Source of the DNA: Torpedo marmorata
Lineage: Eukaryota
NCBI GenBank assembly: GCA_977017645.1
Contig: OZ360225.1
Coordinates: 53,692,001-53,756,000, forward strand
Reading direction: 5' to 3'
DNA: 64,000 nt
How positions within the stretch are numbered: position 1 is the first letter of the stretch; each line of letters begins with the position of its first letter. The notes under the pieces were generated by a model, which had not been told where the DNA came from, made no database searches, and was given only the letters and a program-made list of their open reading frames with translations. Position numbers and translations under genes: made by a program. Below are positions 9,744 through 58,426 of the stretch, piece by piece.

Positions 9744-10518
9744 TATAGTGACTTCAATCCAACAAATAGTCACTTGGAGGCTAGGTGAGACATTTGTTCT
9801 TGACGCGTTTCAATTAATTTACTAACAAGAATCAGAATCAGAATCAGAATCAGAATTTATTGTCATGAACAAGTCATGAAATTCGGTGTTTTGCGGCAGC
9901 ATCATAGTGTAATTAACATTCATATTAACCATCTTACGACATTACTATAAAAAATTATAAACAATAGTGCACGAAAAGTAAGGCAGTGTCTTTGGTTCAT
10001 TGATTGTCTAATAGGTTCAAAAAACTTTATTTACACACATAACTTGTAGCAATCTCAATGACTTAAATATCTTCTTTAAACAAAATATAAACATTTCTTG
10101 ATAACGATGCTTAATAAATTCCTTTAAACAATTCCTTTAAGCGATTCCTTTAACATTCATTTAAACGTCCTTTCAATGGTTCCTTTAAACGTCTTTTAAA
10201 CAGTCAATGAAAGATATAACGTTCTCACTCACCCTCCTCTGTCGCCATATTCTAATACAACCTCCTCTCCCCCCGATTCGCGCATGCTCAATGCTCATAC
10301 TCAACCGAGCATACTCCACCGCGCATACCGCCGTCACTTCCCAACTGCGCATGCTCCAGCCTCTTCCCCACTGCGCATGCGCCCTCAGCACTCCCGCGCA
10401 TGCGCAGAGTACTCAATAGGCCTAGCATGGCCTACTAATCTCCGTAAATCCTCCGCAACCCGCTGAGACAATCGGAACGCGGCAATAAAGATAAGTAACT
10501 AAGCCTTCGGCTCTTACA
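9744..10518 (-). mobile_element. Solo LTR related to the BEL/Pao LTRs at 43282 and 50824
   Basis: Reverse-complement homologue (TGTAAGAGCC...GTCACTATA). 5-bp TSD TTGGG at 9739-9743 and 10519-10523. Interrupted by a Rex tail. Confidence 0.9.
9829..10005 (-). mobile_element. Rex/Babar LINE extreme 3' end
   Basis: (gaatca)n tail plus tttattgtcatgaacaagtcatg, matching the ends of 20374-21555, 39617-40473 and 61294-62043. Confidence 0.85.
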
Positions 10519-16649: not shown

Positions 16650-18004
16650 AAGCGGTTGTGGGATGGGCTCACCATTACTTAAAGAGGATCTTCACAAACA
16701 GATCCCAGCCCATGAAGTACAACAGAAGGAACCACCTCTGTCCCCTTTAAGTTAAAGTACAGCATGGCCTCCCAGAACTTCCTGTCCTCTATCATGGAGG
16801 TCTTAGAAGACAACAAGCAGGAGAGTCTGGACCAGCCAATTATCCTGAGGGAGCTGACGGACTCCATCAATTCCTTTGGGTCAAGTAAAACTTCCAGAAG
16901 TGATGGCTTACTGGCTTAGTCGTACACGGCTCTGTGGGACTGGGTGGGCCCAGATCTGCTGGGAGTATGCGATGCTATGCTCCTGGCAAACAGCAAGTCA
17001 GAATCTATGTGGAAAGGCATCATCACCCTCATCTTCAAACAGAAGGGGGAGAAGGAATTGAAGACCCATATCACTGTTAAGTGTTGCTACAAAATCCTGC
17101 CTAAGGCCATCACTAATCAGATCCATTCAGACGAAACCCGTACTGTTCTGGGCAGGAAAATCGCTGACAGCCTCACGCCAAAAAACGAGGGCAATGGTGT
17201 ACCCAATGTGGCCCTGATCCTGATGACCACCTTCAAGTGTCGTAGAACCAAAGTACAAGGGCACCGTGCTGCTGTGTGCTGAGTTTCTACCTGTCCTAGA
17301 CATTGTGAAGGATGGGCATGGTCTCGTTGCCTCACAATATCCCAGTCAGATGGAATTGCCACACTACCTATGCTTTGTGGAAAGGTTGTTCCAGACAAAC
17401 ACCTTTGATCATGAGTTCATCAGGCAGCGATCAGCACGGAATATCCTGCAGACACTGAGAGACAAAGACTCGATGGATACTGTGGGGTGGTTCCCTGAGC
17501 CGACCGTCCAGATCATCTGGCAGAATGCCTCATTGCCATTGCTCACAAACAAGCACCAGGACTTAGCCTGGTTGGCAGTTAGAGGAGTCCTCTCTGTACA
17601 ATCAGAACATCATCCACAACACACATTGTCCCTGAGATGACTGAGATGGAGTGGAGACAGTCGCCCACCTCTTTGCAAAATGCGATTTCACTAAAAGTGT
17701 GTGGAGAAGAATGCAAGGTCCTTGTCACGGTTCATCCCCAGCTGCAATGTGACAGAGGACTCTGATTTAAGGGCTGTTCCTCGGAATGCCTGCAAAGACT
17801 GGAATCCAGAGCTGCTGAAAGGTCATCAACTCAATGAAAGACAGCCTTTGGTCTGCCCGTTGGTCTTTTTTGTTGGTCTTTCAGCACAATGCGATGTCAG
17901 TGAGGGAATGCAGCCAACTGACACATTCCAGGCTGCAGGAGTACATGCTGAGGGGCTCACTGAGGCTTGGCGCAGCCAACATGAGGGCATTGTGGGGAAG
18001 GACC
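16650..18004 (+). mobile_element. Decayed Tx1/L1-clade LINE; its 3'UTR resumes at 23040-23280
   Basis: RT pieces LDQPI.L.EL, KGIITLIFKQKG, YKIL.KAI.N; C-terminal HQDLAWLAVRGVL and ETVAHLFAKC. Interrupted by the Gypsy element at 18005. Confidence 0.75.
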
Positions 18005-42639: not shown

Positions 42640-44332
42640 ACCGATAATAGCTGGTATACATACTAAATATTTTCAATAGCAAGCCATGCCCACTAAAACT
42701 ACCATTGTGAGCACCGGCTCATACGATTCCTGTCTCAGCCAACATATTTCTATGAGCCGCATATTATGTCAAGGGGCCACAATTTGGCTACCCCTGAACT
42801 AAATGAACTGCTCACACTAACCATACAAGACTCTATAATTTATTAAACAATATATATATTTTTTTATTTATGTATATTTATCCTGCATATGTATTGCTTG
42901 TCTGTATGTGTGGTATGTCTGGTTGTGTGTTTGCATATTTTGCACCGAGGACCAGAAAAAGCTTTTTCATTGAGTTGTACATGTGCAATTGGATGATAAA
43001 TAAACTTGAATTTGAACTTGAACTTAAATCTCTCCTGTACCCTTTCCAAAGCCTCCGTGTCCTTCTTGCAACAGGGTATTGCACACAATAATCCAAGTGC
43101 AGCCTTGCCAAAGTTTTATATAGCTGCAACATGAGTTCCTTACCCTTATACCTAATGCCCTGGCCAATGACAAAAAGCTCGCCATATGCCTTCTTTGCAA
43201 CTCTATCTATCATCTATGGACTTGGACACCCAGTTTCCTCTGCACATCAAGGCTGTTAAGAGTCCGGCCCTTAACTGTATCTGTAAGAGCTGTAAACTTA
43301 ATTACTTACCTTGGTCGCGGCGCTCCGATGGTCTCGGCGGGTTACGGAGGAGTCGCGGTGTTTGGTAGGCCGTGCTAGGCCTATTTAGTACTCTGCGCAT
43401 GCACGGGAGTGCCGATGGGCGCATGCGCAGTTGGAAATTGACGGCAGTGTGCGCGGTGGAGTGTGCGCGGTGGAGTATGTACGGTGGAGAATGCGCGGTG
43501 GAATATGCACATTAAGCATGTGCGAATCGGGAAAAAGAATAGAAAAAGATGGCGGCTTAGAGGAGGGTGAGTGAGATCGCCATATCTTTTATTGATCGTT
43601 TCATTGATGGTTTAAAGTCTTTAATGTCATTTCATTGAACATCTAAATACAGTCAAAGGAATCGTTTAAAGGAATTTATTAAACATCGTTATCAAGAACT
43701 GTTTATATTTCGTTTAAAGAAGATATTTAAGTCATTGAAGATTGCTGCAAGTCACGTGTGTAAATAAAGTTTTTTGAACATATCGGACTTTGTTAGTAAA
43801 TTAATTGAAACGCGTCAAGAACAAGTATTTCACCTAGCCTCCAAGTGACTATTTGTTGGATTGAAGTCACTGTATAATTAGTCAATAAAAGTGGTTATTT
43901 GGAACAGAAAATTGAAGGAAAGAAGATAGAATAATCTCTCCGTGCTTTGGACTGATATTTAAATTAAAATGGTGGCCATCTTGGAGATGCCTCGAGTTGG
44001 GGGCAGTTTGTAATCCACATCCATCTGCCATGAGTAACAGCCAGAGAGGGATTTAAAGCTTCAAATCTTATTGTAAAGTGTACTATAAATATGTTGGAGA
44101 AACCATTTTTGGAAAATCAGTGATATTATAGACGGATGTTGTGGTTGAAACTCGTTTGTGAATAGCAGCACATTACAGTCATCTGAAGTGGTAGGCATAA
44201 GTCTGTGGACTCCTTCTGTGTATCTTTGGCAAGTTAGAACACAGATTGGATTTGCTGCCACTGGTCCATTGGGGACTGTTGATTTGGCTAGTGTTGTGGA
44301 TGCTTAAAGGACAGTGGAACAAGACGAGTAAA

Positions 44333-46680
44333 ATGGCCGCAGCAGCCTTTGATTCAGCAGCCACTGATGTATCAGCAGCTGACGCAGCAACCGCTGATGT
44401 TGCTGTTAAGTACCAATATATTGAAGACATGAAGGTTGCGGATATTAAAAAAGAATTGAAGCGACTGAAACAAGATATAAGTGGAAAGAAAAAGGTTCTC
44501 ATCGCAAGATTGAAGCTGGCAAGGAAGAAGAGGCAGCTTTGTTAGATGAACAAGAAGATAACGTGGAAATGGCTGAAATTGTGTCACCAAATGAAGAGGA
44601 TGAAGAAAATGAAGAGGATGAAGATGCAAAGGATGTACAATTCGAATTGGAGAAGGAGGTAAGTAAGAAGATAACATATGACCTGCAGGATGAAATACAA
44701 GCAAGTGACAGTGTCTCAAATGCTGAAAGCAGGAGAAGCAAAAGAAGTTCTTGTTCGAGCTCCAGAGTTTCTCGTACTTCAAGTTCTGCATCGTCACGTA
44801 CAAAGATTGATGTTTACTTGGCCGCTCTTCTTGCACAACAAAAAACGCTTAAGGATAAACTTATTTTAGAACAAAATGAGGAGCAGCTAAAGGAGCAGAT
44901 AAGACAAAATGAGGAGCAGCTAAAGGATCAGATAAGACAAAAGGAGGAGCAGCTAAGAAAAAATGAGGAGCAGCTAAAGGAGCAGAAAAGACAAAATGAG
45001 GAGCAGCTAAAGGAGCAGGTAAGACAAAATGAGGAGCAGCTAAAGGAGCAGGTAAGACAAAATGAGGAGTAGATAAGGCAAGAGAAGGAGCAGCTAAGGC
45101 AGATAAAGGAACAGCAGGAGCTGGAAGTAAACATTACTATTGCCAAGGCAAAAAAGAAAGCAATAGAATGTTCAATGGTATCTGGTGCTGGAAGGAAATT
45201 ATCTCAAGTGTCTGATAACAAAAGGTCATATTTAAAAAAAGAGTCACAAGAAAAGAAACCAACCATAAGGGTAGATATTTTAGCACCAAGGGTACAAGAC
45301 TTGCAAATACAAGGGCAAATCCTTCAAGAGCATATTGGTATCGAGTCACATGTACCAGTGGTAACATCTGAAGACATAGCTGCGGCTTGGGTTCGGTCAA
45401 ACGATGCAGCTTCATTGTTATTTGAGTCAAGCATCAGAAATATGGAAGCAGCTACACCAGTGAGGTTTCCAGATACATTACCTGTAACAAGAGGCAGTGA
45501 ACAGAGCAATGTATTGTCATCCAAGGGAAGACAAAATGAAATTGCTGCATCATTGTTTCAGTTACAGTCTCTCTCTTCTTTACCCAAGAAAGAGATACAA
45601 ACTTTTGATGGTGATCCACTTCAGTACCAATCATTTATGAGATCTTTCAAACGCAATATTGAAAATAAATGCCAAGATCATGATGAATGTCTTTATTATT
45701 TGGAAATGTTCACAAAGGGACACCCAAAAGAACTTGTAAAGAGTTGTCAACATATGTCTTCAGTAAGAGCATTGGACAGAGCAAAGGCTTTACTAGATCA
45801 ACATTTTGGCAACAAGCATTGAATTGCTTTAGCTTATATGTATAAAGCTCTTAAATAGACATCAATAAAATAGAATGATGTAAAGGCTCTACAAGAATAT
45901 ACTCTATTTTTAAGAGGATGTTTTAATGCCATGGAAGATATCGATAATATTTGTGAGCTTGAAGTTCCTGGTAATATGCGAATCATCTTAGAAAAATTAC
46001 CTTACATTTTGTGGGATAGATGGAGAAATTTGGCTTGTGATTTACAAGAAAATTATGGTCGAAGAGCTACCTTAAAGGATTTGGTAAATTTTCTTGAACG
46101 ACAGGTGTACATTGAAACAGATCCAATATATGGAAATACCAGAGACAATTCAATGGGCAAAGATGTAAGGAGGTCTAACTCACAGCCTAGTCCGAAATTG
46201 AAAAGGAGTATTTTTGCTACTAATATGTCAATTATAAATAAAGAAAAAGACAAAGCAAATAAGGAAAAAGAAAGTTTGCCTGATGAAAAGAGTTGTTTGT
46301 TCTGTAAAGTTGGACATGCCCTGGAAATGTTTTTACGATTGGAAAAGAAGCAACATATTGAGAAGATCGCTTTCTTAAAGGAAAATGGAATATGTTTTAG
46401 CTGTCTGTGTAAAGGGCACATTAGTAAAAACTGCAAAAAGTGAATTAATTGTAACATATGTAAGTTGAAACATCCTAGAATGTTGCATTTCCATCAAAGA
46501 AACAAGGAAATGGAAAAGGAGCAAACAGAAACAAAGGAAATATCAGAAAACAATGTTATAACCTCAGTTCAGACAAGTAGTCTTACCGGGGCCGGTATAG
46601 ATAACTGAAAACTTTCAATACTGCCTGTACAAGTCAAGACCAAGAAAGGGGATGCAATAGTACATACATAAGCATTTCTC
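44333..46680 (+). pseudogene. BEL gag and start of protease (SAP-like domain, coiled-coil repeats, DUF1759-like region, Cys/His knuckles)
   Basis: MKVADIKKELKRLKQDISGKKKVLIARLK; LPKKEIQTFDGDPLQYQSF; CLFC..H; CFSCLCKGHISKNC; CNICKLKHP.MLH; ILPVQVK...AFL. One frameshift and about 7 stops. Confidence 0.85.
44868..45115 (+). repeat. 33-bp coding tandem repeat (QNEEQLKEQIR)n
   Basis: caaaatgaggagcagctaaaggagcagataaga, about 7 copies, in frame in gag. Confidence 0.9.
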
Positions 46681-49060
46681 TTTTTTTAAAAAATATTTTA
46701 TTTAAATTTTTTAAATCACAGAATACATAAAATAAAATGCAAAATTATCAAAATACATGTGATACATTTTCACCTGCCCTCCCTCCCCTCCCTAACCCTC
46801 CCACNNNNNNNNNNNNNNNNNNNNNNNNNNNNNNNNNNNNNNNNNNNNNNNNNNNNNNNNNNNNNNNNNNNNNNNNNNNNNNNNNNNNNNNNNNNNNNNN
46901 NNNNNNNNNNNNNNNNNNNNNNNNNNNNNNNNNNNNNNNNNNNNNNNNNNNNNNNNNNNNNNNNNNNNNNNNNNNNNAGAACAACTATAGACTAATTTTA
47001 TTGTGGAAGATAGGTTCACCAGTCAGATCTGATATCCAGAGAACTTCAAATCCTTAAATCAACAGTATTTATATATGGGCTCCATATTTTCAAAAAAAAA
47101 TGATATTTATACGTAAATTATAAGTAATTTTTTTCAAGTGGTATACATGAATGAAGTTCTGCATGCCATCTTTCTAACCCTAAACCTACATCAGATTTCC
47201 AAGTAGTAGCAATACATTTCTTTGAAACAGCTAAAGCAATTCGCAAAAATTCTATTTGATACATATTTAATTTCATCTTAATACTAATTCTTATAATATC
47301 TCCAAACAAAAATATCATAGGGTCCATTGGAAGTGTAATACTTAATACTTTATCTTAAAAAAATTTAAATTTCAACCAAAAATCATATATCTTTGGACAG
47401 AACCATGTAGAATGTACAAAAGAACCTTCCTCTCTATTACATCTAAAACATAAACCTGATAATGTTGAATTAAATTTCTTTAATTTTTTAGGCATTAAAT
47501 ATAATTGATGAAAAAAATTATATTACACTAATCTATATCTAACCTTAATAATCTTCGTCATACTTAGTTTACATAATTCTTTCCAATGTTCTGCATCTAT
47601 TGTTACATTCAGATCTGATTCCCATTTTAATCTTGATTTGTGAATTCCTAATTTAGACATTTTCCTCTGTAACAATCTATACATTTGAGAAATAAATTTA
47701 TTTACACCTCCATTAGTAACTAATAATTCCAGTTCACTCTGTCTTGGTAAAGTCAAACTATAACCCAACTTTACAACTAAAAATGCTCTAATTTGATCAT
47801 AAGCAAAAAGTGTTTTGTTTAATACATTAAACTTTTCTTTCATTCTTTGAAAAGTAATAAATTTACCAGCTTCAAAATAATCATTTATTTTCTTAATTCC
47901 CTTTTGGAACCAAATTTTAAATAATTGATTATCAACAGTAAATGGAATAAGTTTATTTTGATATAAAGGCATTTTTCAAGAAATTGACCCTTTCCCTCCT
48001 ATCTCCCTATCTACTCTATTCCATATTTCTAACAAATGTCTAAAAATAGGAGAATTCTTCCCTCTTGTTAATAATAATTTAGAATTCCATTTATAAATAA
48101 CTTCTTCTTTCAAATCTTCTCCTATATTATTTAGTTCTATTCTAATCCAAGCAGAAGATTTTCCTAAATCAAACATTTCATTAACAAATTTTAATTGAGC
48201 TGCTTTATAATAATTTTGAAAATTAGGAAGTTGTAAACCACCCATTTCATAATTCCAAGTTAATTTCTCCATACCTACTCTAGCCAACTTTCCTTTCCAC
48301 AAAAACTTCCTAATAATTAAATTTAAATCCTTAAAGAATTTTGGAGGAATTTCATAAGGAATTGATTGAAAAAGATATTGAATTATTGGAAAGACATTCA
48401 TTTTAATACAGTTTACCCTTAATATTAAAGTTATAGGTAAATCCTTCCAACTTTCTAAATCTTTTTTAATTTTCATAAATAATGGTAAATAATTTAATTT
48501 ATATAAATTAGCTAATTTTGTATCAATCTTTATTCCCAAATATTTAATTCCTTCCTTTGACCATTTAAATTGTGTAATTTCTTTACATTTACTATAATCC
48601 CCTTGTGTCAACGCCATAATTTCACTTTTATCAGAATTAATCTTATAACCAGATATCTCCCCATATTCTTTCAATAAAACATTCAATTGTATTAAAGAAG
48701 TAATGGGTTTTGTCATATAAATCAATACATCATCTACAAATAAACTAATTTTATGCTCTTCTTTTCCAACTTTAATACCTGCAATCTTAGTATCTTGTCT
48801 AATTAATTCTGCCAAAGGTTCTATTGCTAAAATAAACAATGCAGGCGACAAAGGGCATCCTTGTCTAGTTGACCTTGTCAAAGAAAATTTTGAAGAAATT
48901 TGTCCATTTGTCACCACTCTGGCAAATGGTTCTTTATATATAGTTTTAATCCAATTAATAAATGTAGTTCCAAAACCAAATTTCCCCAATACCTTAAATA
49001 AATAATTCCACTGTAATCTGTCAAAAGCCTTTTCAGCATCTAATGTTAATACTAATGATA
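46681..49060 (-). mobile_element. 5'-truncated L1 inserted into the BEL protease
   Basis: [18 protein letters not shown](V)DD through to the C-terminus and 3'UTR. No TSD seen. Confidence 0.9.
46805..46977. other. Assembly gap (N run)
   Basis: Run of n inside the L1 3'UTR. Confidence 1.
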
Positions 49061-49068
49061 GACATCAT

Positions 49069-50394
49069 TTGTCTTATCTGTGGAAGGTTTATTTACCTGG
49101 AATTAATTCTGAGATAGAAATGCTGATTGGTTCAGATGTGCCAAAGGTTTTGGAACCACTAGAAGTAATACAGAGTAGAAGGAATGGACCTTACGCTGTT
49201 AGAACCAAGCTTGGTTGGACGATCAATGGACCTTTGGAAAGAAATAATGATATTGCTCAGGAACAGTTAGCGATAAATATTAATAGGATTTCGGTTGTAA
49301 AAGTTGATGAGTTAAGCGAAGAGCAAAAGACTGTGAATAAGAAAATCACTTTTGAAGAAAAGAAAACAGATCAATGTGAAAATAAATCAAGGGTATTTAA
49401 AATAACATTGAAGGAATTATTTTCATCAGAAATGAATGAAAATGAAGTATTAGAAGATGTTGCAAATACTATTGATTATTCATGTGGAATTGAATCAGAT
49501 ACAGGAATAAAACAAGTGACTGAAAAAAAATCTGAAAGTAGATTTTGTAGTTCAGAGGTTACAACAGACAAAGTCAATGAAGAAATATTGCAATATGATG
49601 TAAAACTGGAGAACGCAAGAAAGTTTGCTGATGGAATAAACAAGAATGTGAATGATAATTTAATGCAATTGAATTCAGAAAACAAAATGTTGAAAGGGGA
49701 ATTGAAAATATTAGATAATCATGAAAACAGTAAACAGAAAGATTTAATTGTAAGTAAAATTCGCAAAGTCAGAAAGTGGAAGAAAAGAATAACTGCTGAA
49801 GAAATGAATACAGTTATTGAGGAAAGAGATTCAGCATTATCAAAATGTAAAAGGTTGGAGGAAGAGATTAATATTTTGAAAGAGAACAAGTTATTGGTTA
49901 ATAACACAAAACAGTTGACTATAGAAAACAATCAAGAATGTAAATTGAATGTTCAGCTACTAACAATGCAGAAAGAAAGTGATATTGCATTGCAGAAATG
50001 TAACAAGCAAGATGAAGAAATTAAAAATTTTCAAGTTTACCACAGCAGGGTTGACAATAGAAATATCAATGTATCACATGATATTTTCACTTCAGATCAA
50101 GTTATTAATTTCTCGGAAGGAACTGAGACTGAATTGAAAGTTGCAAATTTGGATTTGGAATTGCAGGAAAAGGCAATAGAAACCAGAGTGGTTAAAGAGA
50201 CTCATTTATTAAAATCGAGAGGATCAGATAAATATTCAAATTTTAGTTCTAAGAGTTTAAATTCTTCACATGAGAAGTGGAATGATGAAGAAAGGAATAA
50301 AGTGAAACGACATGCTGAAGAAGTGCCTCATGTTAAATTCAAAAGAAAAACTGTATCTATTTTGTCTGAGGAAGATTTGAGGTTTACTGGTTGA
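49069..50394 (+). CDS. Chimeric 441-codon ORF: BEL protease C-terminus fused to a non-RT coiled-coil region
   Basis: [37 protein letters not shown] is BEL protease. The rest is K/E/N-rich and lacks RT motifs. The same frame continues through stops into the integrase tail GDIVIIVND..PRN..RPINKVCLL (to ~50615). Confidence 0.7.
49735..50202 (+). pseudogene. MIPOL1: Captured MIPOL1-like coding fragments inside the BEL element
   Basis: [54 protein letters not shown] matches my recollection of human MIPOL1 [72 protein letters not shown] matches LELQEKETEAKIAEKT. Not verified by search. Confidence 0.78.
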
Positions 50395-51554
50395 CGTTTT
50401 AACTCAAAGATTCTGGAGATAAAAGAACTTTGAGGAGACATTGTAATTATTGTGAACGATTCAACTCCAAGAAACTCCTAGTTACTTTGAAAAATTATAG
50501 AGACTATTGAGGACAAAAGTGGACTTGTGTGTCAAGTTTGAATTAAATCTAAGACTGGCTTTCTAAATCGACCTATTAACAAGGTCTGCCTTCTGATGGA
50601 GACGGAGGAACTTTGATAAATACAAACTGACTTTATTTGTTGTTGTATACTTCACAGGTTACAGACTTTTGTTGATTCAGAGTTATGGTAAACTCTGGTC
50701 TTATGGAGAAAGAAGAAAGAGGATTTGTATATTGTTTGAATGTTATATGGTTATTGTTATTTATAATTGATTGTGCAATTATTATTTAAGACATTGCGTC
50801 TAATTATAATAATTAGGGGCCGGTGTAAGAGCCGTAAACCTAATTACTTACCTTGATCGCGGCTCTCCGATGGTCTTGGCGGGTTACGGAGGAGTCACAC
50901 TGTTTGGTAGGCCATGCTAGGCCTATTTAATACTCTGCGCATGCGCTAGAGTGCCGACGGGCTCATGCGCAGTTGGGAATTGACGGCAGTGTGCACGGTG
51001 GAGAGTGCGCGGTGGAGTATGCGCGGTGGAGTATGCGCATTGAGCATGCGCGAAGCGGGAAAAAGAATAGAAATAGATGGCGGCTTAGCGGAGGGTGAGT
51101 GAGATCGCCATATCTTTTATTGACCATTTCATTGATGGTTTAAAGTCTTTAAAGTCATTTCATTGAACATCTAAATACAGTCAAAGGAATCATTTAAAGG
51201 AATTTATTAAACATCGTTATCAAGAACTGTTTATATTTCGTTTAAAGAAGATACTTAAGTCATTGAAGATTGCTGCACGTCACATGTGTAAATAAAGTTT
51301 TTGAACATATCGGACTTTGTTAGTAAATTAATTGAAACACGTCAAAAACAAGTGTCTCACCTAGCCTCCAAGTGACTATTGTTGGATTGAAGTCACTATA
51401 GTATCCTTTCCCTTTACATCTAACCTCGCAAATTGTAAAGGCTCCTTGTTGCATCATTGATTTTAACCAAATTCTTTGTTTCTGATCAATGCTTTGTAGT
51501 TGATGCACATTTGTGGAACTGATCATAATGTATAACAATTCATATTTATTCAAG

Positions 51555-51770: not shown

Positions 51771-53538
51771 TTTTTATTCAATGCGCTTAGGTATTTCAGT
51801 AAAACATTTCAAAGAGCTCATGACAGTATAATACTAGCCGAGAAGATGTTAGGACTTGGGACAATTTTAAGGAAGATCTTAAAGAAGGTGGAGAGGCATA
51901 AAATATAGGAAAGGTGTTTTCGAGTTTTGGATATAGATATGTGAAGGCACAACTGCCGGGGTGTAGAAACTCAGCAGGTCATGCAACATCCATAGGAAGT
52001 AAAGGGTACCCATTGTTTCAGGCCAGGCCCAAAACGTTGGTTACCCTTTACTCCCTATGGATGCTGAGTGACCTGCTAAGTTTCTCCAGCATATTTATGT
52101 AGTGCACTCGAGCCCAATATCTGCAGATTTTCTTGCTTAACTGCCAGTGGTGGAGCAGTTTAATAAAGGCTTCACAAGAGGAAGTAGAGGTGGTCCTGTA
52201 GAAGGGGATGGGGCAAGTAAAATGGGAAAAGGGTGAAGCAAGTGTGGTAGTTGGATTCTGAACACAGAAGAACCCAAGGTTGAGTTGGGGTAATCCTGTC
52301 AAATGAAATGGTTTGTCTCATGGTTACTTACCATTTCCAAATTGGTAACCAGGTTCCGACAAAAGAGTCCTCCTTCTGATATCAAACCGAGAAGCCGAAC
52401 AACATCAGAGAAGAGCTATAGACTTCTTTCTGGTGTTTCCAGATTATTAAGCCTCATCCAACAGCTACAAACAAATAGTATTGATGGTTGTGCAATCAGT
52501 CTGTATGCACTTTAGCTTTCTGACATTGCCCTCATGCCTATACATATATAAAAATAAGTATTAATCAGTTAACCAGCACTTCAGGATGTCCTGAGATCGG
52601 GGAAAGGTGCTACACAAATGTGAGATTTTTGGTGGGTAACTACTGTCGCAAATAATAATTCATCATTTTCTTCCATTGCCTTGGATGTGTAACGAAGTGT
52701 CTTTTGAAGCTGGATCCCCAATAATGTCATTCTCTGTCAGAAAGCAGGCCCGTAAATTCTCAGTCCTGAGCCAATTCAACATCAGTGGTCATCACAAGTG
52801 ATTCTGCCCATTCCTATTGACATCTCAGTAGCCATGGTCTCTGCCTCTTAAGGAGGCAATGCTGTCTTATCCTCATTATATATCCGATGATGTTTAGTGT
52901 TGTGCTGAATGCTTTGAACCAGAAACTACAGACCTTAGAATATTGTGTAGAGAACAAATGGAAGTTCTGTAGCTTTATCTCCTTTATATATTGTGCATAA
53001 AACAGGCCAATTTCTCCACCTAAGTGCCATGATATAAGAATAATTACCTTCATGCTGTGCTTATAAAGTCAAACCCAATTAGTACCATTCACTTATCAAG
53101 CTAATGATCTCCCATGAGTCCTGAGGAAGTGTATCATTTCGTAGATTTGGAAAAAGTTACCTGAAACCTGATGGAACTTAATACTGGAGCCATGGTCTCC
53201 ACAACCACATCCCACAGTGTGGTGTACCTGAGCAGTAATATCCTGGTGTAGAAGGATCCAAGTGTTGGCCCATCAAAGCTGAGCAGGGATTCTGACTGTT
53301 AAAACGAGTACAATGAAAACAAAGAAGAGTCAGCAATGAAGAATGGGCAGTGGGCTCTGCAGCAGTCACACTCAATGAATGGCTTATAGTTTGGGTTAAA
53401 GTTCCTCTAATGTTAGAGCCAGCAGATCTTCATCAGAGGAAGGGAGGAGACTGGAGGAGAATGGATAAGGCTGCAAAGGGAGATGTGGTTAGCAAGTTGG
53501 CATGAACACAAGAAATATTTTGAAATGCAATCACTGTT

Positions 53539-56500
53539 TTTTTTGGGGTTTTTTTATATTTTATTTACATTTTTAAATCACACAATACACAATTCAAAAT
53601 ATATAGTTTCCAAAATACAAGTGATATAAATTTCCTCCCCCCAAACCCTCCCACCCCTCCCTAACCCCCCCAACCCCACTAATCTAAAAAAAAAGAAAAA
53701 GAAAAGTAGATTAATAGTGAGGAGAGAACCATCTAAAAACTTATTTTATCCTGGAGGTTAAACTCGCCAATAGACCTGATTTCTAGAGATTTCAGATCCT
53801 TAAACCCATGACTCTCATGTATGGGCTCCAAATTTTTAAAAAAGAATGATATTTATTACGTAAATTATAAGTAATTTTTTCCAAAGGAATACACGAACGA
53901 AGTTCTGCATGCCATCTATCTAAATTTAAATCTAAATCTGATTTCCAAGTGATAGCAATACATTTTTTTGAAACAGCTAAAGCAATACGCAAAAATTCTA
54001 CCTGATACATATTCAATCTATTCCTAATACTAAATTTTCTAATATCTCCAAATAAAAATATCATAGGATCCATTGGAAACATAACATTAAAAACTCTCTC
54101 TAAAAAATTCTTAACTTTAAGCCAAAAATCTTGAATCTTTGGACATAACCATGTAGAATGAACAAAATAACCTACTTCATTCTTACATCTAAAACACAAA
54201 TCCGACAATGTCGGATTAAATTTCTTTAATTTTTTTGGTGTTAAATATAATTGATGAAAAAAATTATATTGTACTAATCTGTACCTGACATTAATAACTT
54301 TAGTCATACTTAACTTACATAAATCTTCCCAATGTATTTGAGCTATATTAATATTTAAATCTAATTCCCATTTTAATCTTGATTTATGTAATCCTACTTT
54401 AGGCATTTTTCTCTGAAATAATTTATACATTTGAGAAATAAACTTGTTAACATTTGCTTTAGTAATTAATAATTCTAACTCATTATACCTTGGAGCAATC
54501 AAATTTTCTCCTAATTTCTCAACCAAAAAAGCGTTAACCTGATAATAAGCTAACCATGTATTATCTAATACATCAAATTTTTCTTTCAATCTTTGAAACG
54601 TAACAAATCTTCCAGCCTCAAAACAATCTTTAAAATTTTTAATACCTTTTTGAAACCATGCTTTCAATAACCGATTATTCATAGTAAATAATAAAAGTGG
54701 ATTTTGATATAATGGCATATTTAAAGAAATTAATCCTTTCCCACCTATTTCTTTATCTACCTGTGTCCATACTTCCAATAAATGTTTAATAATCGGTGAA
54801 TTTTTCTTTTTAACTAATAATAATTTAGAATTCCACTTGTAAATAATATCCTCTTTATAATTTTCTCCTATATTATTTAATTCTATATTAACCCAAGCAG
54901 AAGTTTTAGCTAAATCAAAAAATTCATTAACAAATTTTAATTGAGCTGCTTTATAATAATATTGAAAGTTAGGGAGCTGCATTCCTCCCATCTCATAATT
55001 CCATGTTAACTTCTCCATACTCACTCTTGCTAACTTCTCTTTCCATAAAAATTTCCTAATTATAAATTTTAAATCTTTAAAAAAAATTTTTGGAATTCCA
55101 AAAGGAATTGATTGAAAAAGATATTGAATTCTTAGAAAAATATTCATCTTGATACAATTTACTCTCCCCATTAAAGTTATAGGCAAATCTTTCCAATTTT
55201 CCAAATCTTTCTTTATTTTCGTAAATAAAGGTACATAATTTAATTTATATAAATTTTATAATTTTGTATCCACTTTAACTCCCAAATATTTAATTCCTTC
55301 TTTTGCCCACTTAAATTCCGTAACTTCTCTACACCTAGTATAATCACCTTGAGATAAAGCCATTATTTCACTTTTATCCGCATTAATTTTTTATCCAGAT
55401 ATTTCACCATATTCTGTTAATATAATAGCTAAATGTTGAAGTGATAAAACTGATTTCGTCATGTATATTAGTACATCATCTGCAAACAAACTAATCTTAT
55501 GCTCTTCCATACCGACTTTAATCCCTACTATATTAGGATCTGTCCTGATCAATTCAGCTAAAGGTTCTATTGCCAAAACAAATAAAGCTGGTGATAAAGG
55601 ACAACCCTGTCTTGTAGAACGCGTTAAAGAAAATTTTGGCGATATTTGTCCATTTGTAATTACTTTAGCTGTAGGTTCCTTATATATAGTTTTAATCCAA
55701 TTTATAAAAGTATTCCCAAAACCAAATTTCTCTAACACCTTAAATAAAAAATTCCATTCTTATCTATCAAAAGCCTTTTCTGCATCCAACGTTACCACCA
55801 ATGGTAAATCTTGTTTCTTTTTATGAAAATTAATTAAACTTAATAATCTAGCTATATTATCTTTAGAATATCTATTTTTAATAAAACCAGCTTGATCTGG
55901 ATGTATCAAATTTGGTAAATATTTAGCTATTCTATTAGCCAAAATTTTTGCCATAATCTTATAATCTACATTTAATAAAGAAATAGGTCTATATGACTCA
56001 GTTTTTAATACATCTCTATCTTTCTTTGGTATAACTGTAATAATAGCATTCAAAAATGTTTTTGGTAATAAATGAGTTTCCGTAATCTGATTCAATACTT
56101 CCATATATAGAGGTATCAATAAATCTTTAAATTCTTTATAAAATTCTACTGGAAATCCATCATCACCAGGGGATTTACCACTTTTTAACATCGATAATAC
56201 TTCATTAACTTCTCTCATCGTAAAAGGTAAATCCAAAAACTTTTTATTCTGAATATTTAATTTAGGTAAAGTAATTCTAGACAAAAATCTATTAATTTTC
56301 AAATCATCCTGAACAACCTGAGATCTATATAAATTCTGATAATAATCTTTAAAAGATTCATTTATTTCTTGAGGTTTATAAGTTATTTCACCAGTATTTT
56401 TTTTCTTTATAGCATTTATAGTTTTAGAAACTTGTTCCTTTTTCAATTGCCATGCTAAAACCTTGTGAGCCTTTTCTCCTAATTCATAATATCTTTGTTT

Positions 56501-57982
56501 CATTCTCTCTATTAATTTTTCCGTTTTATACGTTTGTAATAAATTATAATGTAACTTTTTCCTCATTAAACGATTTCTCTTACGAATTGATTTATTTCTC
56601 TGTAAATCTTTTTCCATAATCTCAATCTCTTTCTCTAATTTTTCTGCTTCTTTCAAATAATCTTTTTTAATTTTTGCCGAATAACTTATTATCAAACCTC
56701 TAAGATAAGCCTTTAAAGTTTCCCAAATTATAAATTTATCATTAATTGATTGATCATTTATCCTCAAAAATTCTTGAATTTCCCTTCTCATATATTCACA
56801 AAAATCTGTCCTTTTCAATAAAGATGAATCAAATCTCCAATTAAATATAGTTTTCTCCTTTTCTGGAATTACACATGTCATTAACAAAGGTGAATGATCT
56901 GAAATTATTCTCGCTTTATATGATACCTGTGATATTCTATCTTGAATTTGCGAAGATATTAAAAACAAATCTATCCTAGAGTATGAATCATGTCTAAAAG
57001 AATAAAAAGAATAATCTTTCTCTCTAGGATTCAATTTCCTCCAAATATCTATTAAATTCAAATCTTTCATCAAATTTATAATTCTTTTAACTATTTTAGG
57101 CCTAACAGACGATCTAGAAGTCCTATCCATTATTGAATCTAGACAACAATTAAAATCCCCCCCAATTAAAATATTATCCTTAGCATCTGATAAATGTAGA
57201 AATGCATCTTGAATAAATTGTTCATCATCTGGATTTGAAACATATAAATTCATAAGAGTCCAAAATTCGGAATAAATCTGACAATTAACCCAAACATATC
57301 TACCTGCCACATCTACTACTACCGATTGTATTTTAAAAGGTAATTTCTTATTAACTAAAATTGCAACCCCTCTAGCTTTAGAGTTAAATGTTGAAGCTAC
57401 AACATGTCCAACCCAATCTCTTTTTAATTTTTGATGTTCAACCTCTGTTAAATGAGTTTCCTGTAAAAAAGCTATATCTACTTTCAACTTTTTCATATAT
57501 GCCGAAGTTCTTTTCCTCTTTATTGGATTATTAAGCCCATTTATATTAATACTTACTAAATTTATACTTCTAGAATCCATCATAATCACATTGTAATCTT
57601 TCTCTGTCTATCATGTCCATTAGCGTTCCCCTCCTAAATTGCATTTTAATTATTCTCTCCTCAAATGAAATAAAAGAAAAAAAGAAAAATAAGAAAAACC
57701 CCTTTAGAAAAAACACAGATAACTCAGTGTTACCCCCCTCCATTGTTTGAGTAGCAGCTTTCGCCGCTAAGGTGGTGATTGGTTCGGAAGAAGTACCAAT
57801 ATGTCCACCCCTCCCCCCAACAGATCAATATAAATCCATACAATATAGATTCAATTAACTCCTCCCAAATCCAGTTCTCCTTGTTCTCCTTCGACTTGAA
57901 CTAAAATATTTTCTTCTCTTGACGCAGCCAACGGTAGCACCACTTGACCTTGCTGATTTTCTTGGTTTTGCTCTTGCTGCTG
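53539..57982 (-). mobile_element. L1-clade LINE with near-complete ORF2 (APE endonuclease, RT, C-terminal domain)
   Basis: SININGLNNPIKR, FLQETH, GGDFN, SRIDLFL, SDHSP; [36 protein letters not shown]. One stop (~55760) and one frameshift (~55390). 17-bp TSD gaaatgcaatcactgtt at 53522-53538 and 57983-57999. Confidence 0.95.
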
Positions 57983-58426
57983 GAAATGCAATCACTGTTG
58001 AATGAACAGAACACAAACTCATGGGGAAACATAGTTGTCAGGTCAGGTCAAGTTTATTGTCATATGATTGTACAAGTACAACCTGACGAAACAGCGTTCT
58101 CCGGTCCTCAGTGGGAAACATGCAGACACACAACCAGATATAACACACATACAAACAATACATGTGCAGGACAAGTATTTCATCTATACAAACAAATAAA
58201 TAAATATTGTTTCATGAACATGAGAGTCTCGGATGTTTAGTGTGAGCAGTTCCTTTGATCATTCAGCATTCTCACTGCCCGTGGTGTTACAAAATCAAAC
58301 CAGCAATGACAGAAGACGCAATGCAAAAGGGGTAAAATTGAAATTTATATTATTAAACACAATTAAACATATAATTTCACAACAAGTAACCCCACTATAA
58401 ATGTCTATAAACACTATTCTTATCTA

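Follow-up and report, generated by a model that had tools for sequence, protein, structure and literature searches.

A 64,000-nt stretch of the Torpedo marmorata genome (6.2 Gb; assembly GCA_977017645.1, contig OZ360225.1, positions 53,692,001 to 53,756,000 of the forward strand; referred to as the window, with coordinates counted from its first base) contains, from 43281 to 51400, a non-autonomous derivative of a BEL/Pao retrotransposon. In place of pol, and continuing the Gag-protease frame, it carries pieces of the host genes BRCA1, MIPOL1 and Elongin A (ELOA), all three free of introns. The element is one decayed copy of a family in which the MIPOL1 piece carries a scrambled exon junction, likely copied from a circular RNA (circRNA). 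The family was probably formed by capture of spliced sequence from three genes and moved by a helper element, with its frame kept open for translation rather than for the function of the host-derived protein.

The frame that follows the protease (49069-50391, 441 codons, plus strand, as for all features below unless stated) contained no Pfam family at E<=1, and no match to the autonomous helper elements was found between 49326 and 50433; as a preliminary description of the window had noted, reverse transcriptase (RT), RNase H and integrase are not present after the protease. That description assigned the replacement to a MIPOL1-like segment, which accounts for only the middle third of the frame in the window; the remainder of the replacement comes from BRCA1, from an upstream part of MIPOL1 and from Elongin A. 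For MIPOL1, the top protein match was Narcine bancroftii MIPOL1 (E 2e-34, 70% identity), followed by other rays and sharks, and 109 protein matches were MIPOL1 by name or shared its two Pfam families, one of them under an unrelated JGI label. The segment at 49740-50045 corresponds to host exons d (3′ part), e and f, joined without introns at 90, 87 and 86% nucleotide identity, respectively. The BRCA1 fragment (49322-49752) consists of two spliced exons from the region after the RING domain (88% and 80% nucleotide identity to host exons), and the ELOA fragment (50190-50411) consists of two exons (84% and 91% nucleotide identity to the host). In translated copies of an older subfamily (A, below), the piece preceding MIPOL1 is 80% identical to Narcine BRCA1 (E 1e-74), all 7 matches being BRCA1, and the piece following it matched Elongin A (PDB 8oev_M, E 7.7e-40).

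Each donor was traced to a single multi-exon locus, MIPOL1 on C40, BRCA1 on C61 and ELOA on C41, and probes from uncaptured parts of MIPOL1 and BRCA1 gave one genomic match each. A second multi-exon Elongin A-like locus (C25:175318134-175337048) was ruled out as donor. When host exons were compared with Narcine proteins, 354 of 391 residues were equal. The host BRCA1 exon near C61 25488540 lacks three codons that are common to the element and Narcine BRCA1, so the element keeps an older state of the host gene. The Narcine BRCA1 model (P0111, residues 1-185) has no RING Pfam match; its N-terminus may resemble a retroelement Gag, possibly through an annotation error.

A genome search with Narcine MIPOL1 led to an older subfamily, A, which is much nearer to the host gene and in which MIPOL1 residues 437-553 are followed directly by residues 295-385. 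The fullest copy, L077, has the order protease, pre-RT stub, BRCA1, MIPOL1 d-e-f and then a-b-c stub, ELOA, later insertions and 3′ end. Its cargo comprises 4 BRCA1 exons, parts of 6 MIPOL1 exons and 5 ELOA exons, 14 of which could be aligned to the host, all at 91-98% nucleotide identity and without introns; the sixth MIPOL1 exon (c) is a stub of ~20 nt that was recognised by eye. These matches dispose of an ordinary diverged BEL pol. The window copy holds a shortened cargo (78-91% nucleotide identity per exon to the host), and its group has lost the BC-box/Pfam Elongin_A part, which the older subfamily retains (PF06881 in older copy L081, 59 bits against a cut-off of 29.8). Exon skipping was rejected as the cause of ELOA exon loss, which was a microhomology deletion. 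A single uninterrupted frame of 1,211 codons runs in copy L082 from gag through all three cargo pieces, with BEL-type Gag (DUF1759 region, Cys-His knuckles) and protease in the same frame (PF03564 E 8e-5, 23.1 bits, just below the cut-off of 25.4). The family thus has the structure of an LTR-mediated retrocopy, an internal open reading frame (ORF) replaced by intron-free host exons between both long terminal repeats (LTRs), and also that of a gag-onc fusion, host sequence joined in frame to gag in a helper-dependent genome.

In the host gene, MIPOL1 exon f ends before a GT donor, and exon a begins after an AG acceptor located 206 kb upstream. The element joins the end of exon f to the start of exon a base for base (50045|50046 in the window), and this junction was seen, with no more than 3 mismatches, in 23 of 28 loci of the older subfamily. 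Together, exons a-f amount to 780 nt, a multiple of three, are open in frame and are flanked by introns of 50 and 62 kb. The element carries ~590 nt of such a 780-nt circle and nothing from MIPOL1 outside it; the upstream exon and the C-terminal part, which lie outside the circle, gave a single genomic match each (one search had a stricter first look). Exon a was found once in the N-free host region of 323 kb, so the host gene contains no tandem exon duplication. The window itself retains exons a and b at 50046-50202, with an 81-nt in-frame lineage deletion. An exact join of a downstream donor to an upstream acceptor, with no parental sequence beyond the circle, is what characterises circRNA retrocopies. 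Judged from the sequence, the junction is the signature of a back-spliced 780-nt circRNA, for which back-splicing is the simplest source, and the template was likely this circle rather than a linear mRNA. The proposal that an intron-free host mRNA had been captured into the Gag-protease frame of a non-autonomous element therefore stands with respect to spliced capture and requires revision in that three genes were involved and the MIPOL1 source was likely circular. Among the 20 sequencing runs listed, none is on record as RNA, and element copies carry the same junction. In one older-subfamily copy (C42:9563886-9564965), the MIPOL1 piece around the junction occurs in tandem with a period of 405 nt; this period is shorter than the 780-nt circle and likely reflects later duplication, not rolling-circle copying.

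Selection on the cargo was examined by counting changes, with the commonest codon per column used only as a yardstick. From the host to the window's group, the ratio of nonsynonymous to synonymous substitution rates (dN/dS) was 0.75 (0.50-1.12) without and 1.06 (0.75-1.59) with a transition weight. Residue changes numbered 110, compared with 115 under a null with the observed mutation spectrum (P 0.18), and their BLOSUM scores fit the neutral null, with no bias to conservative changes. By this measure, no selection on the function of the captured protein was detected, as dN/dS is near 1 and residue changes match the neutral null. No fixed internal stop was present in 365 columns with 170 substitutions, where 10.6 were expected (P 2.5e-5); in simulation 12.4 stops were expected and 0 of 1,000 runs were free of stops. 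Private changes that followed insertion in the same copies included 20 stops among 345. Twelve non-splice lineage events (3 capture junctions and 9 deletions) are in frame in the majority of carriers, with a chance of about 2e-6 if each event has a one-in-three chance of being in frame, while 35 of 146 private indels are in frame. Shared stops and frameshifts are confined to the last ~30 codons. The same counting between A and B, or with the helper, gave dN/dS of 0.32-0.59 in the gag core, zinc knuckle and protease, so the method detects constraint where it is expected. Selection held the frame open, not the protein sequence. The earlier suggestion that the fusion was translated in the progenitor is supported by the lack of fixed internal stops and by the in-frame lineage deletions, and the analogy drawn with oncogene transduction holds for structure but fails for function.

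A linear source could also have given the scrambled MIPOL1 order, by trans-splicing, by a transient duplication of host exons or by an RT jump between two linear mRNAs at the 3-nt microhomology present at the junction, with the rest of the model the same. The end of exon f and the exon preceding a share AG plus the next base, the captured ~590 nt amount to less than one round and so contain no rolling-circle repeat to prove circularity, and other routes to non-colinear junctions are noted by Dong et al. (2016, PMC4897178). However, a microhomology jump would hit both splice sites with a chance of about 5e-4 (3 of 6,577 in-frame backward jumps with at least 3 nt of microhomology land on exon-end/exon-start pairs), the host locus has no second exon a, no element carries MIPOL1 sequence beyond exons a-f, and exonic MIPOL1 circRNAs of mouse and one of human are listed in the available parts of PMC9888537, PMC8176118 and PMC8783515, where their exon make-up is not stated. 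A linear source is accordingly considered unlikely. A chance match between coiled coils, a diverged pol and an assembly chimera are all refuted as origins of the host-like sequence by the 14 matched host exons with exact splice junctions, by thousands of dispersed copies and by contigs of four public runs that cover the stretch, some of them bridging junctions; their probability is negligible.

A different alternative concerns the reason for the open frame. The captured chimera may be a working accessory protein, in the manner of v-onc or retroviral accessory proteins. In such a protein the coiled coil from MIPOL1 might act as a spacer in assembly, or the BC-box of Elongin A might bring in Elongin B/C against a host restriction factor. 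The strictly maintained frame would fit, as would retention of the Elongin_A Pfam region and the segment just upstream in the older subfamily; in addition, lineage deletion has taken just one codon from the MIPOL1 d-e-f core, apart from the trimming of its 5′ edge, and zero new prolines occur in the 110 changes, though just 0.8 were expected. We nonetheless regard a protein function as improbable, since the dN/dS intervals span 1, BLOSUM scores are as in the neutral null and the lineage that dropped the BC-box region outnumbers the one that kept it by ~30 to 1. A MIPOL1 value of 2.0 (one subfamily, kappa 3) lies inside the range of the neutral private-change control (1.0-2.0), and positive selection on MIPOL1 was rejected. 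Similarly doubtful is the proposal that the BRCA1-circMIPOL1-Elongin A chimera is a new accessory protein partly from a translated circular-RNA frame, freed by the element protease and giving an advantage over the helper. If true, the advantage would have come first via the Elongin B/C-binding box and later via a coiled-coil spacer, and the family would represent a gag-onc-like functional transduction with tens of thousands of copies fixed in a vertebrate germline. Alternatively, by analogy with gene capture and epigenetic conflict in maize, the host sequence might serve as an RNA-level shield: since small RNAs that silence the element would also act on BRCA1, ELOA and MIPOL1, the host would silence it less. 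Two of the donors rank as important housekeeping or germline genes, and the family exceeds helper RNase H matches by ~six to one. Because the abundant subfamilies are ~16% diverged from host exons and the near-identical one is rare (560), because a shield does not explain the maintained frame, and because, in the available parts of PMC5131818, non-autonomous elements often outnumber helpers even without cargo, we consider such a shield very improbable.

Several points weigh against a helper-moved family whose frame was kept open for translation. The circRNA, the transcription of the element and its translation are all read from DNA, and with a microhomology of 3 nt, trans-splicing or a since-lost exon duplication would give an identical junction. 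Neutral change leaves room for a function for which length, charge or coiled-coil character would suffice, and a cargo that was pure filler could have vanished, yet ~1.1 kb persists in the cargo-bearing copies. Near the 3′ end, the ELOA y1-y3 junction is out of frame in 5 of 7 B2 and 2 of 3 B0 copies, and a shared stop is present in 3 of 3 B0 and 6 of 9 B4 copies. Other apparent frameshifts are common to 3-6 copies and scattered over subfamilies, and a -10/+2 pair occurs in 33-34 copies at the end of a local alignment; both are read as recurrent slippage or alignment artefacts. The positional sample came from exact matches only (6,681 of 17,340), so a subfamily may be unsampled, and the B lineage's own Gag has too few changes since the backbone exchange described below to gauge selection.

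The 3′ end of the fused frame differs from what had been described, namely a frame running on through point stops into the integrase tail, with preservation of frame at this junction taken as evidence of translation. Every listed copy that can be read in frame through this column has a stop at 50431-50433, ahead of the integrase C-terminal tail (50434-50619). In the short-tail subfamily, which does not have this tail, the stop is integrase's own and was reached by a deletion from ELOA into the last integrase codons; the longer tail, which follows the family stop, likely came back from the helper. Of 17 subfamily A copies, 14 have the ELOA-integrase junction outside the integrase frame, 2 have lost the junction to another insertion and 1 is in frame. 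The 3′ argument for frame preservation thus falls away. The window copy terminates earlier, at 50392-50394, a stop common to 6 of the 29 copies of its group, the column being open in the other 23.

To count copies, a degenerate 22-mer across the derived junction was matched genome-wide. This gave 6,681 exact matches and 17,340 with at most one mismatch (reversed controls, 0 and 2), and the older junction gave 560, so that at least about 17,900 copies carry the scrambled junction. A Poisson reading of the exact and one-mismatch counts puts the number at about 33,000, a figure open to distortion by subfamily variants. Candidate counts from the first look (35,164, 57,434 and 6,618) were not taken as copy numbers. 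One helper RNase H 22-mer gave 3,031 matches with two mismatches, a number that other helper subfamilies may escape. The dispersed copies have their own target-site duplications and share switch points, as expected from secondary retrotransposition. Within C40 63.9-65.1 Mb, seven family copies were found in the 524 kb sampled, five of them in MIPOL1 introns, and none in 200 kb on three other contigs. Preferential insertion into MIPOL1 was rejected, as 5 copies in 324 kb and 2 in the 200 kb flanking represent similar density, and because density varies by region, copy number was not extrapolated from sampled stretches.

In a tree of 61 natural copies, subfamily A leads via intermediates to the window's group and then to younger copies, and the cargo shrinks stepwise along this ladder (7 of 59 copies with large insertions or too little cover were excluded, and L182 is misaligned in it). 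Divergence within LTR pairs is 4-12% for A (two copies), 2-6% for the derived family (six copies) and 0-2.4% for the helper (six copies). Autonomous helper copies have frames of 2,018-2,134 codons and, in some, identical LTR pairs; L146 and L148 combine identical LTR pairs with open frames, so their family was active very recently. At synonymous sites, derived gag differs from the helper by 0.05, whereas derived cargo differs from the host by 0.15-0.20; A and B differ by 0.30 in gag-protease and by 0.13-0.16 in the cargo. Backbone and cargo therefore differ in history, which suggests that the backbone was exchanged by recombination with the helper. At sites where host and Narcine differ, A copies match the host about 20 times and Narcine about 11 times, and the capture is old, probably falling after but near the host-Narcine split. 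A shark mutation rate of 7e-10 is given per generation in the available part of PMC10587355, so no dates in years were calculated. Contigs of all four runs compared, which are labelled as four other organisms from four studies, cover the stretch in 30, 30, 30 and 27 of 30 bins; contigs of runs X3 and X4 bridge the scrambled junction and those of X6 bridge the other three junctions. This hints that the family is shared with relatives, although host DNA in other samples could give the same cover. Contig depth in X3 was several-fold to more than tenfold higher at 50662-50830 than over the cargo, hardly so in X2 and X4, and could be due to 3′-biased RNA or to another family sharing the 3′ end. X3 is only guessed to be RNA, and its cover was not accepted as expression.

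The following mechanism would account for these data. RT would have switched templates among co-packaged RNAs in the order BEL, ELOA, MIPOL1 circle, BRCA1 and BEL again, within a single round or over several. At the switch points, judged by eye and without a shuffle control, similarity extends over 6 of 7 nt between BRCA1 and MIPOL1 and over 6 nt between MIPOL1 and ELOA; divergence of the helper from the oldest backbone prevents the BEL-BRCA1 switch point from being resolved. An autonomous BEL family of the same genome likely supplies the enzymes that move the element in trans, and only variants translated to near the 3′ end would spread. In the helper, 198 nt separate the stop from the LTR, while a stop after the protease in this family would leave ~1.6 kb untranslated and likely lead to nonsense-mediated decay, from which translation would protect the RNA. 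Translation-coupled packaging is an alternative reason for the open frame and fits equally well.

Acutely transforming retroviruses carry gag-onc fusions, and their v-onc proteins are selected for function. Like them, the family is replication-defective and helper-dependent, with pol replaced by spliced host sequence fused to gag, but the residues of its cargo evolve neutrally. In poliovirus and mouse hepatitis virus, defective interfering RNAs must stay in frame. They resemble the family in being helper-dependent and in shrinking by in-frame deletions, with translation mattering but not its product; they are RNA viruses in culture, whereas this is a germline retrotransposon recorded in a genome.

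In maize, the LTR retrotransposon Bs1 contains partial exons of three parental genes and, as described in the available part of Tan et al. (2016, PMC5131818), has shared switch points, secondary retrotransposition and 1-5 copies. The Torpedo family likewise holds exonic pieces of three genes with shared switch points and was re-mobilised, but differs from Bs1 as known from that source in its copy number (at least 17,900), vertebrate host, BEL/Pao carrier, back-splice junction and measurable frame-only selection. The same part of that paper describes LTR-mediated retrocopies of animals, including mosquito BEL18_AG and a mouse four-gene ‘Super’ retrocopy, as young or low-copy, with loss-of-function changes in 14 of 21 older ones. 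Shared with these are pieces of spliced mRNA in place of the internal ORF, chimeras of several genes, non-autonomous rounds and, possibly, the microsimilarity that they show at switch points; in contrast to those described there, the cargo here is ~16% diverged, the lineage is in frame and the helper is outnumbered. Mouse circRFWD2 pseudogenes, 33 high-confidence copies associated with the LTR element MMERVK10C-int, were reported with the mechanism left open (Dong et al., 2016, PMC4897178). A non-colinear exon-exon junction, sequence confined to the exons of the circle and association with an LTR element are common to both; no fusion frame is described for circRFWD2, whereas the junction here lies inside a complete LTR-to-LTR element, in frame with Gag-protease and between two other captured genes, and the copy number here is >500 times higher.

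LTR gene capture, multi-gene chimeras, re-mobilisation and circRNA retrocopies are, to judge from the available text of PMC5131818 and from PMC4897178, already known. The family, its scale and frame-only selection were not found in the literature searched, which did not cover subscription journals, Repbase or the supplements of PMC4897178 and PMC5131818; nor did it yield a circMIPOL1 paper or a chondrichthyan paper combining BEL, BRCA1 and Elongin A. The fusion protein was absent from the matches of two protein searches, which are weak and length-limited. The family is likely a fossil record of a circRNA copied by the RT of an LTR element, with the whole carrier intact, and so bears on the mechanism left open by Dong et al. 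It is a vertebrate gene capture that gave rise to a dominant repeat family rather than to a few dead retrocopies, placing pieces of BRCA1, MIPOL1 and ELOA at 17,900 or more sites; were every copy full length, these would occupy as much as about 100 Mb, an estimate at the upper end. It is also a natural experiment, with thousands of copies available for testing, in which selection for an open frame can be told apart from selection on protein sequence. In this lineage the copies will confound the annotation of BRCA1, MIPOL1 and ELOA as well as read mapping and circRNA calling for them.

The remaining features of the window copy are those of a BEL/Pao (Belpaoviridae) element. As the preliminary description reported, the LTRs are paired (43281-43874 and 50824-51400, 37 mismatches in 577 aligned bases, 6.4%) and flanked by the 5-bp target-site duplication GTATC (43276-43280 and 51401-51405); a purine-rich stretch at 50811-50823, judged from the sequence, is likely the polypurine tract preceding the 3′ LTR. 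The gag and protease reported there are both present, although in damaged form. The gag region (44333-46443) comprises a SAP domain, a glutamate/glutamine repeat, a DUF1759-like core and zinc knuckles, and contains stops and a frameshift; in a Pfam search it matched PF02037 (E 2.8e-7), with PF03564 under the cut-off. The end of gag and the start of the protease (46444-46679) are separated from the 3′ part of the protease (49054-49325) by a 2.4-kb long interspersed nuclear element (LINE) fragment on the minus strand (46680-49053; RT PF00078 E 3e-26). The fragment is a later insertion, private to the window copy and not a part of the family; ~230 nt including the catalytic motif are gone at its site, and other copies lack the insertion. 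Gag-protease in the window is 85-87% identical at the nucleotide level to autonomous BEL copies, which carry PF05380, and the match stops at 49326, the cargo junction. Elsewhere in the window, a minus-strand LTR at 9744-10518 belongs to the same BEL group but is more distant (76% identity to the LTR of the element over most of its length). The LINE fragment in the protease is ~83% alike to a second minus-strand fragment at about 53500-58000, and the same LINE family sits beside or inside several other BEL copies.

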